Assembly: GCA_951406725.2 (NCBI GenBank)
Contig: OX597814.1
Location: 92,194,001-92,258,000, forward strand
Direction of reading: 5' to 3'
From: Octopus vulgaris
Lineage: Eukaryota
DNA length: 64,000 bases
This document shows, piece by piece, positions 130 to 48,789 of this stretch (the first letter of the stretch is position 1; each line of letters opens with the position of its first letter). The position numbers and the translations under genes are program-made. The notes beneath the pieces were generated by a model. That model worked only from the letters and a program-made list of their open reading frames with translations. It was not told the origin of the DNA and made no database searches.

Positions 130-730
130 TTATGGATGCAAATATAGATCTCAGATTCGACGTGGTGGAACAAGATAGCTTTACAGAGTGTTTTTTTAAA
201 TATGGGGTAATAATTGTGGTGCTTCGGAAAAATTAAATTTCAGGATCTTACAGAACAGTTTTGGTAAATTCTTGACTCTGAGAGAAAATGGGGTTGTAGG
301 AGGGGGGGAACAAACCTAATAATTTCTCTTTTTTTCTAGATTCAGAGTGGGTTACTACATTAGGGTGTTCAGACATAGAGGGACTACATTTAATACGGTT
401 CCTAAAATTAAGGCTATGGAGTTTGGTATAGTTAAAAGGTTTTCTTATACTTTCATAATCTAAGGAAGAAATCGTATTAGTAATTTCAAGATTAGTGTCA
501 GATGAGGGATTAGCTAATTTGATTTTGAGTTTGGTATCAGGGATGTAGAAAATAGGATCATAAAAGCCACTCGATTTTAGGGCTTGATTATAAAATGGGA
601 CATGTGCATTAAAGATCTCTTCGTTTACTGATTGGTTGGAAATCATAATAGAGACAGCCGTAATAATACTATCGACGGTTAATTTTGGATGATTAGGGGA
701 AATGTTTATATATTGTAATGCGTGGTTTCA
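130..730 (-). mobile_element. Degenerate Penelope-like retroelement (PLE), RT C-terminal/linker region
   Basis: Minus-strand translation LQYINISPNHP...ISNQSVNEEIFNAHVPFYNQALKSSGF...FPPSY...VKLSCST matches the PLE post-RT pattern (YINxxSNHP...LSxISSxEExFNxxxPxYQxALxxSGY...WFNPPY...VKVSYSC); includes ORF 248-646; frameshifted. Confidence 0.7.
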
Positions 731-1239: not shown

Positions 1240-1522
1240 TACTGAAATATATCATGCAGTTGCTCTTCCAGTATGAAGAACATTATAACTCGTAAAAATC
1301 AGCAAGTACCCCCTCCCAGATGTAACTGTCGAGACCCTGACGTTTTCCTACTTGACCAGGGATGTATGATAAACTCCGTCGTACACGAGGCCGAGGTAAC
1401 AGCAATGCTTCAATTGAAAAAAGATTTACATAGGTGTTTTGAAATTGCCTTCAAACAGTCCTATGTAAATCTTTTTTCAATTGAAGCATTGCTGTTACCT
1501 CGGCCTCGTGTACGACGGAGTT

Positions 1523-1555
<33 letters not shown>

Positions 1556-1588
1556 ATATATAGTGAGAGAGAGAGAGAGAGAGAGAGA

Positions 1589-3039: not shown

Positions 3040-3990
3040 GTTCCCATTCCTAATGAGCTCAAACTGAGACCTATCATAGCAGGTCCTGCATGCCACTCCA
3101 GACACACAACTCATGCCACCCCAGACACACTAGAATGAATATTCCTTTCAATCTAGCAAAAAAATATTTGTACTATAGTTTCTAATACGAGCACCAAGGA
3201 CACACGACTACATGATCTAAAGCACAGACTCATCATCAGGAACTACCCACCATCATTAATTGACATATGCTCTCAACATGCGCTACAACTCAACATCCAC
3301 GAACTCAGACATCCCAAATTAAAGAATGACTTGCAACCAAAATCCCTACCATGCATCTGCACATACAACCCTCTTAACAATGAAGCCTTCGACGACATCC
3401 TCCAAAATATTCCCCTACTAAAAAGGGGCCACAGAATGAATTTGATTCTCCAAACGCACACCATCATAAAAAGTAAGCAACAGCCCAAATCTATAAAAAG
3501 TCTCCTAACACAAGCTCAAATACGCTCCACAACACTGAAACTATCAGTAAAAGAAATGAGGAAGACCTAACTGTGGTATATGTGTCAACCTACTTGAGAG
3601 ATCAGAGTTCTATTTCAAACAAGGTCAACGTTTCACAGTGAAAAGCAACTTCAGATGTGGTTCCGAGAATCTGATATACGTATTAACCTGGTCTGGGTGT
3701 CGAGAACAATGCATAGCCCCCTCCCCCCCCCCCCAAAAAAAACAGTCCACGTCAAAGATGGCTCTGCACAGATCCCAGATCAAAATTCCGAAAAACAGAA
3801 AAATAGCATTCAACGTACACGTCGACATTTGCACCAATAACAAACAACCGAGCTTCAGAATCTTTCCCCTCTATCGATTCATGGACGATACATGTAGTCA
3901 GCATATTAGTAGAGTCATTCTTATCACAAAATATCAAATGTATTCACAACAAATGTTACTGTGGAATCAGGGCTTTAGTATAACACCCAC
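3040..3990 (+). mobile_element. Second degenerate PLE family (internally deleted RT, linker and GIY-YIG endonuclease)
   Basis: LRPIIAGPAC (RT start), NIPFNLAKKICTIVS...RLHDLK...NYPPSLI, TYNP, IKSKQQPKSIKSLLT, RPNCGIC, FRCGSENLIYVLTWSGC...LHRSQI...HVDIC; multiple frameshifts. Confidence 0.75.
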
Positions 3991-4304
3991 GCAAATATTA
4001 AAAACGATATAATCAAAACAGTCGCCTCAAGAATTTATTCAGAACGATTTCAATCACTACTATCGTCCACAATATGTGTCCATTTACGTATTTATTCTCA
4101 GTAGAGTTCAGCTGTATTTAAAAGTTTTCTTGCAAATCTCTTCATATTTGCGGGGAAAAATATTTTACTACTTTCCATCCTACCTAGTGAGCAACTTTTG
4201 GATTATGTTGAAGCTTTCACTGAGTATTTTCTTTGTTACATTCCTTTTTAATACTTCAGATACTCAGATGCAAATCTTATATGTATGTATAGATAAATAT
4301 ATAC

Positions 4305-7954: not shown

Positions 7955-8041
7955 AAGGGTGGAAAGGAACACACGAGTTGATATATATGAAAAAACAAGT
8001 CAAAAATAGAAAATGCTAAGAAAATTTTATAGTGAATCTTT

Positions 8042-8079
8042 CAGTACCGGTTTCGGTCATTTTGAGACCTTTTCAACTG
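8042..8079 (-). ncRNA. Minimal type I hammerhead motif, U3-A8 variant (mirror copy)
   Basis: Exact reverse complement of 8341-8378. Confidence 0.6.
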
Positions 8080-8340
8080 TAACGATTAAATAATTAAATT
8101 TAGAAAAATTAGAAGAAAAGTTTTTTTAAAAGAATATTTATGTAGTAGTGTTCAGATATAAGTAGCATTCTGCCTTTCTCTGACTCCCTTGTTTGCACTT
8201 GTGTGTTCGACGAACACACAAGTGCAAACAAGGGAGTCAGAGAAAGGCAGAATGCTACTTATATCTGAACACTACTACATAAATATTCTTTTAAAAAAAC
8301 TTTTCTTCTAATTTTTCTAAATTTAATTATTTAATCGTTA

Positions 8341-8378
8341 CAGTTGAAAAGGTCTCAAAATGACCGAAACCGGTACTG
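8341..8378 (+). ncRNA. Minimal type I hammerhead ribozyme motif, U3-A8 core variant
   Basis: cag TTGAAAA ggtc-tcaaaat-gacc GAAA c-cg-g TA ctg: stem I cag/ctg, stem II ggtc/gacc, palindromic ACCGGT stem III, GUA cleavage triplet. Confidence 0.6.
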
Positions 8379-8428
8379 AAAGATTCACTATAAAATTTTC
8401 TTAGCATTTTCTATTTTTGACTTGTTTT

Positions 8429-8632
<204 letters not shown>

Positions 8633-19769: not shown

Positions 19770-21590
19770 TAAGACAACCGTTAGCGCACTGGACGAAATG
19801 CCGCTACGTCTTTACACTCTGAGTTCAAATTCCGCCGAGGTCAATGTAATTCAGTTTTGGGATCGATAAATTAATCGCCTGTCAAGTACTGGAGTAGATA
19901 TAACCGACTCTCACCCTCTCACAAAAAAAACACCAGTCCCGTGCCTAAATTTGAAACTATTATTCTTAGTACTTTTGTTTCCTAGTGTTAATTCTTCCTG
20001 TGATTATTCTAATTTCATATTATTGGTATTCTTATTAAAAGCAGCGAGCTGAGAGAAACGTTAGCACGCCGGGCGAAATGCGTAGCCGTATTTCGTCTGC
20101 CGTTACGTTCTGAGTTTAAATTGCGTCGAGGTCGACATTGCCCTCCATCCTTTCGGGGTTGATAAATTAAGTACCAGTTACGCACTGGGATTGTGTAATC
20201 GACTTTATCCGTTTGTCTGTCCTTGTTTGTCCTCTCTGTGTAGCCCCTTGTGGGTAGTAAAGAAATAGGCATTTCGTCTGTCTTTACGTTCTGAGTTCAA
20301 ATTCCGCCGTGGTCGACTTTGCCTTTCATCCTTTCGGGGTCGATTAAATAAGTATAAGTTACGCACTGGGGTCGATATAATCAACTTAATCCGTTTGTTT
20401 GTCCTTGTTTGTCCTCTCTGTGTTTAGCCCCTTGTGGGTAGTAAAAAATAGGCATTTCGTCTGCCGCTACGTTGTGAGTTTAAATTCCGCCGAGGTCAAC
20501 TTTGCTTTCATCCTTTCGGGGTTGATTAAATAAGCACCATTTACGCACAGGGGTCGATATAATCGACTTAATCCGTTTGTCTATCCTTGTTTATCCCCTC
20601 TGCATGTAGCCCCTTGTGGGCAATAAAGAAATAGGTATTTCGTCTTTTGCTACGTTCTGAGTTCACGTTTCGCCGAGGTCCACTTTTCCTTTCATACTTT
20701 CGGGGTCGATGAATTAAGTACCAGTGAAAAAAAACTGATGTCGATGTGTTCTACTAGTCCCCTTCCCCAAAATTACAGGCCCGGTGGCGATCTGATGGAA
20801 TCGTTAGCACGCCGAGTAAAATGCTTAGTGGCATTTCGCCCGTCTTTACGGAAATTGCTGGCCTTGTGCCCAAATTCGAAACCAATATCAAGAAGGCAGT
20901 GAACTGGCAGAATCGTTAGCACGCCGATTAAAATGCTTAGAGGCTTTTCGTTCGTCTTTATATTCTGAGTTTAAATTCTTCCGAGGTCGACTGTACTTTT
21001 CATCCTATCAGAGTCAATGAATTAGGTACTGGTTAAACACTGGGATTGATGAAATCGATTTACCTCTCCCCAAAATTTCAGTCCTTGAGCCTTTAGTAGA
21101 AATAATTATTCTTATTCTTTCTTTATTTCGATATTTAATATCTTAATATCCTAATAAATCGAATTATTTTTTTATTTAATTTATGATTTTTAATGTTGAT
21201 TTCAAAATTTGGCACAAGGCCATCAATTTCGGGGAAGAAGTTAAGTCGATTAGATCGAGCCAGTGTTCAACTAGTACTCATTTCATCGATCCTGAAAGGA
21301 TGAAAAACAAAGTTGACCCCGGCAGAATTTGAACTCAGAACGTATCGACGGACGAAATGCCGCTTAGATTTTTGCTAGGTGTGCTAACGATTCTGTCAGC
21401 TCCCTGCGTTTATGGTTATTAATATTAGTGTCTACGTTCTGAGTTCAAATTCCGCCAAGTCTATTTACCCTTCTATCCTTTTGGGTTCGATAAAATAGCT
21501 ACTAGCTGAACACGGGGACGATTCATATAACCTACAAGATCCCCTCCTCCAAAATTTTAGGCATTGTACCTATAAGAGAAAGAATTATTA
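19770..21590. mobile_element. Cluster of SINE family B (Meta-SINE-like core), including a head-less 183-bp tandem array at 20041-20760
   Basis: Repeated ttctgagttcaaattccgccgaggtcgactttgcctttcatcctttcggggtcgataaattaagtaccag; tandem unit starts at 20268, 20451 and 20634; one copy is inverted (21210-21410). Confidence 0.85.
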
Positions 21591-23762: not shown

Positions 23763-25151
<1,389 letters not shown>

Positions 25152-27553: not shown

Positions 27554-28467
27554 TAACAACAAATAAGATGAGGACAAATATCCGTCTATTGTAAATAATG
27601 TAAATAAATAATGTACATAATTCCTGAGCTCTTAAATATAGAACTATATAAACTGTCACCCTGAAATATGTCTATGTATGTATGTATTAAAAGACAATAT
27701 TTATATACACCGAATACTGTGTTATTTAACTTGGGGAAACGTGTCATATCGACACATGACACACAAAAGTGTAAATATATCGTTGGAAGACGAGAATAGT
27801 CTGCTCCAGCACCTGAGCCACCGAAGTATGCTGAGGCAACGTCTTCAAAAATTTTAGTCGAATAAATCGACTCCAGTACATTTCTTAATCCTGTACTTTT
27901 TTGCTGAACTGTCATATTACGAGGTCGTAAATACACCAGTTGCCAAGGGGTAGTGGGGAACAAACACAGACACATTACTCAAAAGAGAAAATATACATAA
28001 AGCAACAAATAACCCAAAGCGAAAACTTTTGTGCAGATATTTGTCAAAATAAATTATAAATTGCGTGTGTCTGTGTATATGTAACATTTCTATTTGTACT
28101 AGAGATTTATTCAAGATCTAAGACGAAAATGAGAAGTTTCCAGTAAGTTCTTCTGCGTAGTGAAACAACGGGAAACCAACTTATATATTATTTATCTACT
28201 CATCTGTTTCTATACCGATAGATATACTCACACACACGTATGGATATACATACATATATATCTATATGTCTCTACATATAAAAAATATAAAAATATATAT
28301 ACATATATATGCATACACACATGCATAAATATACATATATACACATACGTACATATACCTACACACATATATATATATATATACATATGCATACATACAT
28401 ATAAATATATACATATATCTGTAGACATACATAAACATTTATATATATGCACATACATACATATATT

Positions 28468-28510
<43 letters not shown>

Positions 28511-28513
<3 letters not shown>

Positions 28514-29198
28514 CTTAGGGTAGCAAGAATATTCATCGAAAAATTCTTAGTTACCAATAGTCTAGCAAGAAAGAAAAAAATTAGTCAATAAACTATATAT
28601 TATTCAAAGAAGAATACAGTGTACGTTCAAACACAAAAGAGATACCCGAAGAATAGGATATCTGACAAGCCAGAAAGATCAGTTAAAACTCCAAGCCACC
28701 AATTGTTGTAATTCTGAAAGTGATTAAAAAATAAAAAAACTTTTACCTTAATCCTAGACCCTGCAAGGTTTCTGCGGACTTAAATACAGACTGAAATAAA
28801 ATAATCTCAGCCTATATCTGGCGCTGCTTCTTCAGTAGGTTGCCAGAACTAACACATAGGCACGGGGCGATATATAACCCGTCACGTGTCTATAGGTTCT
28901 AATTTTTCGAATCTACCACGCAGAAGCAGAACTGAACCAGCACTAATAAAATATATTGCCGAGTTTCTTCCAGAATTACCCAAAAAGCATTTTATCATTA
29001 ATTAAAATCTTAGGGTAGCAAGAATATTCATCGAAAAATTCTTAGTTACCAGTGGTCTAGCGAGAAAGAAAAAATTAGTCAATAGACTATATATTATTCA
29101 AAGAAGAATACAGTGTACGTTCAAACACAAAAGATATACCCGAAGAATAGGATATCTGACACGCCAGAAAGAGCAGTTAAAACTCCAAGCCACCAATT
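28511..29198 (-). mobile_element. Non-coding 495-bp unit present as a 1.4-mer (direct repeats 28511-28704 / 29006-29198) carrying a hammerhead; retrozyme or solo PLE pseudo-LTR
   Basis: Two ~194-bp direct repeats with about 8 differences, period 495; left end abuts (TA)n; HHR between them; no internal ORF in the track. Confidence 0.75.
28753..28839 (-). ncRNA. Type I hammerhead ribozyme with extended stem II
   Basis: Minus strand: ccta CTGAAGA a gc...[agatataggctgagat-tatttt-atttcagtctgtattt]...gc a GAAA ccttgcagg GTC tagg. All core nucleotides are present, with a GUC triplet and a 16-bp hairpin containing 4 G-U pairs. Confidence 0.8.
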
Positions 29199-29580
29199 TT
29201 TTTGATGATAAGGGTAAATGTTTTTATTTTCCTTTGGTTTCTGAATTACTACTATTTAGCGGTTTGAGTTTAGCTGATCTTTATAGTGGGTCCTTAATAT
29301 TGTTGAACATATATATATATATATATATATATACACATGCACAATTTATAAGAGCAATGACCAGCGTTTTTGCTGAGATTTTTCTTGAGAGCACACCCTT
29401 CGAGGCATGGTGATTTGACGTCTATCTTTGCATATTAGCAATCTACATTAGTGGTCATTCGTCTTATTAATTGTAATATAATTTTTAAATCACTTGATTT
29501 TTTAAAAATATGCATCAATTTCTACACTCATTATTTGATATATATATATATGTACATACATATATATATATAGATATAGA

Positions 29581-31380
<1,800 letters not shown>

Positions 31381-31636
31381 AAAATACCGTTTTGTTGATG
31401 TTGAAATTCCAATGAAGAAGCCTTGGATCTAGGTTAGAAACCAGCTCTTTCTCTATTGGCAAGAAAACTTGAAATAAAACTGAACAATGACATACATACA
31501 TACATACATACATACATACACACATACATACATACATATATACATACATACATACATACATACATACATACATACATACATACATACATTCATACATACA
31601 TACATACATACATACATACATACATACATACATACA

Positions 31637-40416: not shown

Positions 40417-40627
40417 GCATATATATATGCATATATATATATATATATATGCATACATATATATATATATAGGATATTGGAATATTGCATATATACCATT
40501 ATGCCTATAAAACGGATTTACAAATTCAATACCCATACATATCTTACATCTATTTTCTTCCCTCCACCTCACTCTTTATTTTGTATCACATAGAAACTAA
40601 CTATGACTTAATTTTTCCTCTTACACC

Positions 40628-40679
40628 GTCTCCGATGAAGGGATATAATTACTTAAAATCCTAGAAACAGCTGTAAGAC
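40628..40679 (+). ncRNA. Type I hammerhead motif with U4C change
   Basis: gtct CCGATGA a gggat-(13 nt)-atcct a GAAA cagctg TA agac: stem I gtct/agac, palindromic stem III, GUA triplet. Confidence 0.65.
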
Positions 40680-40916
40680 TTTCTATCTATAAATGCTCTA
40701 ATATCTATACAACTTTGGTTTTTTATCTTATTACGCAAATAATTCTTATATACACAAGCTGACATAGAACCAGCGTTGAACCCTTTATTCGCAATATTAC
40801 CGAATCTGGAACTTAACTATGGTCTTTCTATACCACTTATTCAGCATTACCTGACACCTTTGGGTCTCAATGACACCATTAGCTCTTATAACCTCAACTT
40901 CTCGTATATATATATA

Positions 40917-42657
<1,741 letters not shown>

Positions 42658-47069: not shown

Positions 47070-48295
47070 CAGTTTCTTTGCACCTTATGTAACACATTTA
47101 TGAATCTCCATATTGTACGGTGCTCCATTCCCAGCTTTGTTTGGAATTTTCTAATTGCTGCTTCAGCATGGCTATTTGTTCAGTCTTCCCCGAACAACGT
47201 CCTCTCGGAAACATTCCACATTTCATGGGGGAAGAATAAATGTATTCTACTATTTCCCCATCGGTTTCGTCTTCCAATATTGGTATATTCGAACCAATCC
47301 AGCTGTGCTGCAAGTTCTTCACACATATCTGCAGAGAGGGCGTCAATATATGTATCAATATGTGGAACAGGAACATATGGTAAACTGAATATCATCTTGG
47401 CTTTTAGTACAAAGGTAGCATCATTGTTTTGTATAGAAGTATAACTTATGGCAGATAACTTTATGTTCATACTGTGTGCTAAATGAAATAAACATCCACT
47501 TATTTCAACTTCTGAAAAAGCTTCGTTTATGGTTTTAAAGACTGCGTGTTTAAAGTCGCAAATAGTAGATGTTAGGCTTAGTGTTGGCGCGGCTTCTTTA
47601 AACATTTCAAACCTATTTGCATAAGTTAATCGCTGCTTGTTTGGCAAAAGAGTATAGATATCCAGGAAAACACCATGTAATTTCTTTGCAAGAATAATGT
47701 AAACTTGTGAAAATAATCTTGGTGCTATTTTAAAAGTTCCATCGGCATTCCAAGTATCAGATGAACATAAATGCTGCAGCCAACTTTCTCTCTTGAAAAG
47801 CAAAATTCTATGTAGTCCAGAACAACTATCACCGATCAGGAAATTTTCTTTTCTTTCTTCCTCAAAAATGTAAATTCTGTACTGGTGCAGCAACTCTAAC
47901 TCTTGAAAATCTACAGAACTGGGAGGTAGGGTGCTTAAGTCTCTCCTTTTGTGTTTTGTAGTTTTCCTCATTGCTGAAGCATCTGGCAATGATTCAAGTG
48001 TGACTTGAGATGTATTTGTTAATACTTCACCGACGACTGCACTTGGCGTTTCAACGGTGTCTTCGATACGACATCTCAAGGCTGTGTGCACTTTAGCCAC
48101 TTCTATATTAACTGCAGACGAATTATGGGGATGCTTGATAAGTGTACCGAAGTTGATATGAATCCTTGCATTGCACCTAGAACCTTGATCACAACACCAA
48201 AATTGTATATTGTCACTCTTACAAAACTTATCAAATACAATAAATGTTCTTCGTCTGCAATTTTTTTCTTTTCCTCTTTGGCTAAGAATTTCCAT
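47070..48295 (-). pseudogene. Mutator-like (MULE) transposase with N-terminal FLYWCH-like zinc finger
   Basis: MEILSQRGK...FWCC...CNARIH...HPH; WNADGTFKIAP.LFSQVY; LLPNK; CDFK; GCLFHLAH; an in-frame stop at 47180 is followed by TNSHAEA...HRTIWRFI. Confidence 0.88.
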
Positions 48296-48789
48296 TTTGG
48301 ATCTGAAGAAAAAATTCAATATATATTTGCGAATCCAACTTTCAAAATGTCTACCTCTTAATGTCGATCTCAAGAGCTGTAGCTGCCAACATCGGTGGAA
48401 AAACATGAATTCTTGATTTTCCTTCTTTGAATGGTTTAGAGCAACCTAAATACATTCGACACAAACTAAATAGGCCGTTATGACCAATAAATTGCTGTGA
48501 CAAACTGCTAAATTGAAATTGAAGAATCTTGGGCCGATCATGAATCAAGCAAATCATTGTTCCGTGACGCACACGCACGCACACACACACACATACATAG
48601 GTATATATATATATATATATAATATCATTTATAAATTACTTGCAAAAGTTCTGCATTTTTTATTTATTCAAGCCTTGTATTAAGATGATTCTTTTTTATA
48701 AATTTCTGATAATGTTATAAAACGAATAAATTATTTATTAATCGATTTATTAATCAATTATTTATTAATCAATTCATAAAGCGAGTGTG

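Follow-up and report, generated by a model that had tools for sequence, protein, structure and literature searches.

Metazoan non-LTR retrozymes, as presented in the parts of the two surveys considered here (PMC7229834; 10.64898/2026.07.22.740005), are non-coding units of a few hundred bases that each carry a type I hammerhead ribozyme, have a GC content under 50%, occur as tandem and partial-tandem copies and co-exist with Penelope-like elements (PLEs). Their mobilisation by PLEs has already been argued for vertebrates. Homologous pLTRs were found for 24 of 57 Xenopus families, and in vitro cleavage failed for eight of nine Xenopus retrozyme dimers (10.64898/2026.07.22.740005). Insertions of the coding EN+ PLEs of the Hydra and Neptune clades show 5' truncation, partial tandems, an adjacent inverted 5'-truncated copy and a tail of 30-40 nt on one arm; these elements target (TA)n and carry a hammerhead upstream of their 3' ends, the role of which has been called unclear (PMC8557442). 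For the Anolis element Poseidon PAc, two internal start sites downstream of the hammerhead, an AT-rich target, extension of both strands and a predicted dimer have been described (PMC11167929). Cephalopods are not covered in the parts of the two retrozyme surveys considered, and the literature searched, mostly papers outside subscription, contained no paper on octopus hammerheads or on cephalopod non-autonomous Penelope ribozymes.

The element described here is a member of this known class and works like a non-LTR retrozyme moved by PLEs. It lies in a 64,000-nucleotide stretch of the Octopus vulgaris genome (assembly GCA_951406725.2, contig OX597814.1, forward-strand positions 92,194,001 to 92,258,000; hereafter the window, to which all plain coordinates refer), and it is one copy of a dispersed protein-free repeat family, family A, with at least 1,145 candidates. 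Family A shares the features of metazoan retrozymes listed above (its GC content is 35%), and differs from them in occurring mostly as stumps and 1-1.5-mers (tandems reach 3.1 turns, with one 3.1-mer among the loci seen), in an A.A apposition at the base of stem II and in a long stem-II hairpin. It likewise shares the insertion features of the EN+ PLEs, from which it differs in having no ORF and in a tail of ~95 nt. The two internal start sites, the AT-rich target and the extension of both strands recall Anolis PAc; unlike those of PAc, the start zones of family A are AT-rich, ragged and mostly join TA runs. The layout of plant LTR retrozymes, with a type III hammerhead in LTRs, a PBS, a PPT and a 4-bp TSD, does not apply, the topology being type I and the repeats being partial tandems of variable extent.

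The preliminary description had reported two ~194-bp direct repeats 495 bp apart beside (TA)n, and self-alignment of the window bore this out, with 28508-28707 and 29003-29201 identical at 190 of 199 aligned bases at an offset of 495. We numbered the unit along the minus (ribozyme) strand, with q1 at 29005, q495 at 28511 and the predicted cut at q249|250. A full 495-nt unit (28511..29005, minus strand) reaches (TA)n with its 3' end, which falls in what we call below the distal zone, and is joined seamlessly to a partial preceding turn (q299-495; 29006..29201, minus strand) that is 95% identical to it. The insertion is larger than the 28511..29198 first given, since it reaches 29307: an inverted arm, missed earlier, occupies 29204..29307 on the plus strand and belongs to a sister family, B, whose 470-nt unit has a canonical-core hammerhead. 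This arm ends in the B proximal zone at (TA)n. The repeat scan placed the left TA-rich microsatellite target at 28244..28511 and the right (TA)n target at 29309..29333. The non-coding status proposed for the unit holds, its longest internal ATG ORF being 38 aa and the indels that separate the family A and B units being non-triplet.

Several other repeats lie in the window. A 182-nt unit is tandemly repeated at 20090-20725 (3.5 copies, 85% matches), and near-perfect long inverted repeats at 1590-2714 and 7990-8430 (364 nt at 99% and 220 nt at 100%) are flanked by (TA)n and resemble further two-armed insertions. Degenerate PLE thumb and GIY-YIG fragments are present at 248-727 (minus), 1246-1563 (plus) and 3157-4012 (plus). 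A pair of 276-nt terminal inverted repeats at 29720-31386 surrounds a reading frame that we take to be transposase-like; 24159-25151 is presumably a LINE-like C-terminal fragment and 47180-48445 a transposase-like frame of 421 aa.

The minus-strand type I hammerhead was found with all its parts exactly where they had first been claimed. From stem I to stem I it spans 28753..28839 (minus strand), with the core segments CUGAAGA at 28829..28835 and GAAA at 28769..28772, GUC at 28759-28757 and stem I formed by CCUA (28839-28836) and UAGG (28756-28753). The predicted cleavage site GUC|U (28756..28757), where the 5' ends of family copies pile up, corresponds to q249|250. Stem III pairs A-U, C-G, C-G and U-G under a palindromic UGCA cap, and stem II (28773..28828) consists of the A.A base (28828/28773), a 4-bp GCAG/CYGC stem, a 4x4 internal loop and a 16-bp hairpin (28819-28782); at one position of the basal 4-bp stem, the U of the other intact copies is replaced by a C peculiar to the window copy. 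The four G-U pairs of the hairpin had been taken as a sign of selection on the RNA. The hairpin is there, and the motif region folds better on the minus strand (-38.1 kcal/mol, z -2.06) than on the plus strand (-27.7 kcal/mol, z -0.37), but most aligned copies have A-U at two of the four G-U positions (33/50 and 39/50). Structure prediction for the isolated motif gave a lowest-energy fold other than the hammerhead. Rfam scans of the window returned no hammerhead, including at the retrozyme locus, so that the covariance-model search suggested at the outset came back empty at the motif; genome-wide, six of 73 scored matches to RF00163 were above the cut-off, none at the window locus.

Family A was delimited by a DNA search of the 2.8-Gb genome, in which the 40 best candidates, those scored, lay on many different contigs and matched the full unit at 84-93% identity. 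The core, whose lack of conservation would have spoken against the first reading, is kept in 34 aligned segments picked by overall similarity, with the 5' A of the A.A apposition present in 31/34 and the 3' A in 33/34. In an alignment of 50 copies, of which 22 were picked entirely and 27 in part by motif patterns, pairing in the named stems holds for 96.3% of 1,396 cells, and 28 two-sided stem changes were counted against a shuffle mean of 10.6, with no slid control near 28. These changes concentrate in stem III (U-G to A-U, C-G to U-A) and in one hairpin pair (C-G to U-A) and are a few subfamily events, not 28 independent ones. The hammerhead region is no better conserved among copies (0.93-0.95) than the remainder of the unit (0.90-0.97), as expected where inserted copies decay neutrally. 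The first proposal, a non-coding retrozyme-like family in which the type I hammerhead is conserved, is supported. The window copy has one hammerhead, and at least two consecutive hammerhead-bearing units, the criterion by which Li et al. call a locus 'active' (10.64898/2026.07.22.740005), are found at L007/L054, L026 and L184. Pieces of family A copies also occur in assembled contigs of runs presumed to be RNA, some within longer records, though these contigs reveal neither ends, strand nor circles, and DNA-like sequencing runs under three organism codes contain the family.

The A.A apposition had been noticed at 28828/28773 and again at 40639/40663, and both were confirmed. Its proposed status as a core variant was borne out as well: it is family-wide, and the pattern with A.A at the stem II base has 2,730 matches in the genome against 14 for the reversed control, and the 100 matches listed include at least eight stem-II sequences that are unrelated. 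The canonical G-C pattern has 662 matches (control 134), the two patterns not being equally specific. Since the homologous families A and B differ at the stem II base, the change arose within one element lineage. With A.A at 10.1/11.1 the pair that is best conserved in stem II is lost, and the filter of Perreault et al. (2011) rejected hits mispaired at 10.1-11.1 (PMC3088659). Family A shares a short palindrome-capped stem III with the PLE hammerhead variants described (PMC4209133; PMC3088659); unlike them it has an unpaired A on both sides, the described departures being a single extra base after A9 (PMC4209133) and a U10.1.U11.1 mismatch (PMC3088659; PMC7229834). The main-text passages searched, mostly of papers outside subscription, contained no description of A.A at 10.1/11.1. 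Another A.A hammerhead family (L330/L331 and L304/L305) forms tandems of ~563 nt and, as the units are over 99% identical, is very young. The second A.A hammerhead of the window (40632-40675) combines the A.A base with C replacing U4 (CCGAUGA) in most copies shown, and lies in a 5'-truncated terminal region (40472-40917, plus strand) of a coding PLE family with at least 3,763 candidates.

The anatomy of family A insertions was analysed in two sets of loci, 80 anchored at the exact pattern q472-495 and 42 new ones anchored at q343-367. These anchors are exact 24-25-nt patterns without preference for long copies, and the sets were drawn from 100 of the 123 and 100 of the 130 pattern places listed, 15 places already in L001-L030 being excluded from the first. 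Also excluded were five duplicate loci in the first set, L261 (a duplicate of L260) in the second, and arms shorter than 30 nt, a threshold that removes a short L298 arm beginning at q250. The 3' ends fall in two zones ~95 nt apart, one distal (q495 to q20 of the next turn) and one proximal (about q350-412), and (TA)3 stands at the end of 218 of 284 distinct arms; no target-site duplication was readable inside (TA)n. The 5' ends are ragged and mostly adjoin an inverted arm. Arms on both strands were present at 82/122 of these length-unbiased loci, and one distal was combined with one proximal end in 72/79 two-arm loci, including 28/31 in the second set, whose anchor did not select the distal end. 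Family A insertions thus show 5' truncation, an inverted arm, a one-sided tail and a microsatellite target, and the two-armed truncated copies with two 3'-end zones in (TA)n reproduce the PLE layout of partial tandem, inverted truncated copy and one-sided tail. A random circular permutation of the copies is ruled out by the confinement of the 3' ends to two zones. Of the arrangements proposed for the copies genome-wide, partial tandems were seen; random permutation was not, nor, in the loci examined, was a contiguous PLE ORF.

The window insertion follows the same rule with arms from different families. Its plus-strand part (29204-29307) is 97% identical over 89 nt to family B, which has at least 1,778 candidates and a unit collinear with that of family A (322/447 aligned bases, 72%). 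The B arm begins at the fifth base after B's predicted cut, is without a 22-nt internal hairpin, and joins the 5' end of the A arm back-to-back with no TA spacer, one end being distal and the other proximal. The apparent ages are similar, with the A turns differing by ~4% and the B arm lying 3-4% from its closest relatives. We regard the mixed insertion as probably one event and not the chance neighbouring of two TA-targeted insertions, which suggests that it may have been built from two RNA templates in that one event. Among 213 arm junctions it is the only clear mixed-family case. A fragment of a Hydra-like coding PLE lies back-to-back with a family A copy at L223 (4099-4835), possibly a second mixed insertion; as the adjoining PLE family looks older (74-84% to relatives), this is only a weak hint. 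Two sister retrozyme families were observed at L327 (650-1123) and L345, with units of 474 and 470 nt, canonical cores and the same UGCA-capped stem III, and a stem-III pattern has 1,165 genome matches against eight in the control.

If the ribozyme cuts its RNA in the animal, copies made from cut templates would end at the predicted site, which was fixed before the second set and sister family B were scored. In the first set 13 of the 38 arms reaching q251 stop at q249-251 (p 6e-10 against the local downstream rate); in the second 3 of 23 do so, all at q250 (p 0.047 against the same kind of rate, marginal alone). Together, 16/61 arms stop within one base of the predicted cut, against 2.2 expected from the local downstream stop rate (p 5e-10), or 14/61 without two microhomology-ambiguous junctions (p 4e-8). 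The cut site is the top-ranking 3-nt window of the unit, and at L031 and L101 both arms begin at the cut. In sister family B, 5/59 arms stop at +1 to +3 (p 0.008 against the global rate), a weak footprint with p about 0.03-0.08 against B's higher local rate and with A-run ambiguity at some stops. So many copies ending exactly at the predicted cut suggest that the ribozyme really cuts in the animal, and the q250 peak likely means that part of the template pool carries a ribozyme-cut 5' end.

The same pile-up could have come from polymerase stalling at a structure, microhomology-driven fold-back or a transcription start, which would leave the element retrozyme-like but the peak unconnected with cleavage. 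Two q250 junctions (L066, L110) do show TAGGA microhomology; the remaining q250 stops have heterogeneous junction partners. There are other pile-ups besides q250, at q262 and q323, the latter (q322-324, 7/60 in the second set) comparable in count, and the stop rate across q252-300 is raised (0.012 per nt), partly from arm overlap. Eleven stops nevertheless fall on q250 itself, a single base that had been named beforehand, the rate upstream of the cut is back at background (0.003-0.005 per nt), and at the 3' base of the stronger 16-bp hairpin, where stalling should be evident, only one stop was seen in 530 arm-positions. A spurious pile-up at q340 stemmed from changes private to the window copy and vanished with column-wise scoring. 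In Anolis, cleavage was unnecessary in vitro and RNA-seq had no reads ending at the PLE hammerhead cut (PMC11167929), whereas in the octopus it is genomic copies that end at the cut. On this balance we consider an origin of the peak other than cleavage improbable.

A further question is what the uncut templates look like. In the preliminary description, as in the retrozyme model in print, copying requires a ligated 495-nt circular RNA that is traversed more than once, and the 1.4-mer would be a record of such a circle. Circular RNAs have been shown for coral, mussel and axolotl retrozymes (PMC7229834). In family A, 95/284 arms cross an intact cut site (two cross two sites and one crosses three) and 28/284 are longer than one unit with seamless junctions, both counts including similarity-selected loci, which favour long copies. 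Turns within a locus differ at 34/249 polymorphic sites against 94 expected between loci, inverted arms being similar (56/343), and the two turns of the window copy differ at eight sites, none of them among 11 family-polymorphic ones (0/11, with 2.5 expected against other loci). One RNA template per locus is therefore likely, but the likeness is predicted equally by a circle and by a young, homogeneous, uncut tandem. Five natural units are predicted to fold well as circles (z -2.6 to -4.6), and the opposite strand does so about equally well (z -1.5 to -5.3), without strand specificity. About a quarter of the arms that reach the cut stop there, for which a linear 5' end is needed, and the main PLE substrate in vitro was unprocessed RNA (PMC11167929). 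Three multi-turn arms (L054, L267 and L222) pass intact cut sites and then stop 13, 7 and 9 nt before reaching another; with five arms at risk at the second site this is a weak signal, which leans towards linear multimers with a cut 5' end. The X3 joint, described as one that 'goes back 493', was rejected as evidence for a circle, as it is a partial-tandem copy. The 1.4-mer as the record of a circle is thus not established: an uncut tandem transcript gives the same product, explaining it equally well, and the permutation of the copies is not random. The template may have been circular without having to be, and we think it rather unlikely that a circle was obligatory.

PLE machinery had been named as the probable mobiliser, and the insertion anatomy supports this as likely. 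In the family A loci examined, the arrangement of an ordinary pseudo-LTR, with a PLE (RT/GIY-YIG) ORF contiguous as the unit's own upstream sequence, was not seen, and among the coding PLE loci sampled, which cover part of the genome's PLE families, no autonomous element or pLTR with sequence similarity to the unit was found, in contrast to the Xenopus homologues mentioned above. The mobiliser is consequently assigned by anatomy only. The unit could still be just the terminal repeat of a coding PLE whose longer copies fell outside the sample: the genome searches score the best 40 candidates only, and the other A.A hammerhead of the window is such a pLTR, its family continuing upstream into a PLE ORF at L174 and L211. 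Upstream of q1, however, family A copies continue as q495 of another 495-nt unit, end truncated or invert, the PLE protein matches near family A copies (L221, L222) are separate insertions, and the sister families likewise form closed units of 470-474 nt, which makes this origin very improbable.

Several PLEs were rejected as parents of the unit. L176 and L221 are separate insertions, L221 having its own hammerhead and a TA run and SINE-like repeat lying between; at L192/L222 the unit interrupts a PLE 3' UTR and is absent from 24/24 other copies of that PLE; the 784-aa and 717-aa PLE families bear no sequence resemblance to it; and the 806-aa family and the L223 PLE family were rejected too. 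The young intact 784-aa family (L156-L164) has RVT_1 and GIY-YIG matches and a CX4CxxC linker, by which we read it as Neptune type; in its 3' region a hammerhead-like motif, its core bearing U3/A8, was recognised by eye. The 717-aa family is marked as Hydra-clade by RWK and CxCX5C and has at least 150 identical endonuclease matches. It is very young (L470-L499, e.g. G000:C3:37227704-37238313) and occurs in whole-element tandems with a period near 2,585 bp, and its hammerhead has CCGAAGA and a G-U at the stem II base. Both families end in (TA)n at two sites, and of 28 ends scored in the Hydra family 16 were distal and 12 proximal, back-to-back pairs being mixed in 4/4 cases. A mobilising enzyme of the Hydra clade is more likely than one of the Neptune clade, solely because a related coding family (L174) carries an A.A hammerhead in its terminal region and because (TA)n targeting is typical of that clade.

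Taken as a whole, the evidence makes it likely that the window element is a dispersed, protein-free 495-nt hammerhead repeat, probably a non-autonomous PLE of the non-LTR retrozyme kind, whose insertion into (TA)n was carried out in trans by the reverse transcriptase/endonuclease of a PLE. Tandem copies would be read through in transcription, and the enzyme would nick both strands of a TA tract. Priming inside the RNA would use the distal zone, ~245-265 nt past the cut, for one strand and the proximal zone, ~100-160 nt past the cut, for the other. On templates that the ribozyme had already cut, copying would run off the 5' end and leave a ribozyme-less stump; where the site was intact, in an uncut multimer or a re-ligated circle, copying would pass through and might exceed one unit, as in the 1.4-mer. 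Because the two arms of the window insertion come from different families, an arm is probably able to draw on an RNA molecule of its own. More tentatively, and at slightly less than even confidence, the scars may record the PLE mechanism in vivo, with the A.A hammerhead cutting at least a quarter of germline templates (stump versus regenerated unit) and two-site, two-strand arms made from two RNAs.

What appears to be new, as read from the genome, are three things: the footprint at the cut site, the insertion built from two families and the A.A core found across the genome; the literature searched, mostly papers outside subscription, contained nothing relevant on truncated Penelope insertions at a hammerhead cut or on template switch. 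If the A.A core is active, surveys that require the 10.1-11.1 pair undercount hammerheads in the octopus lineage. Scoring the positions at which genomic copies stop is an easy test, applicable to any PLE or retrozyme family, and in octopus family A the stop counts point to germline cleavage. The mixed-family insertion and the distal/proximal rule together give a concrete model for the inverted PLE structure, testable with the intact Hydra- and Neptune-type ORFs of the same genome.
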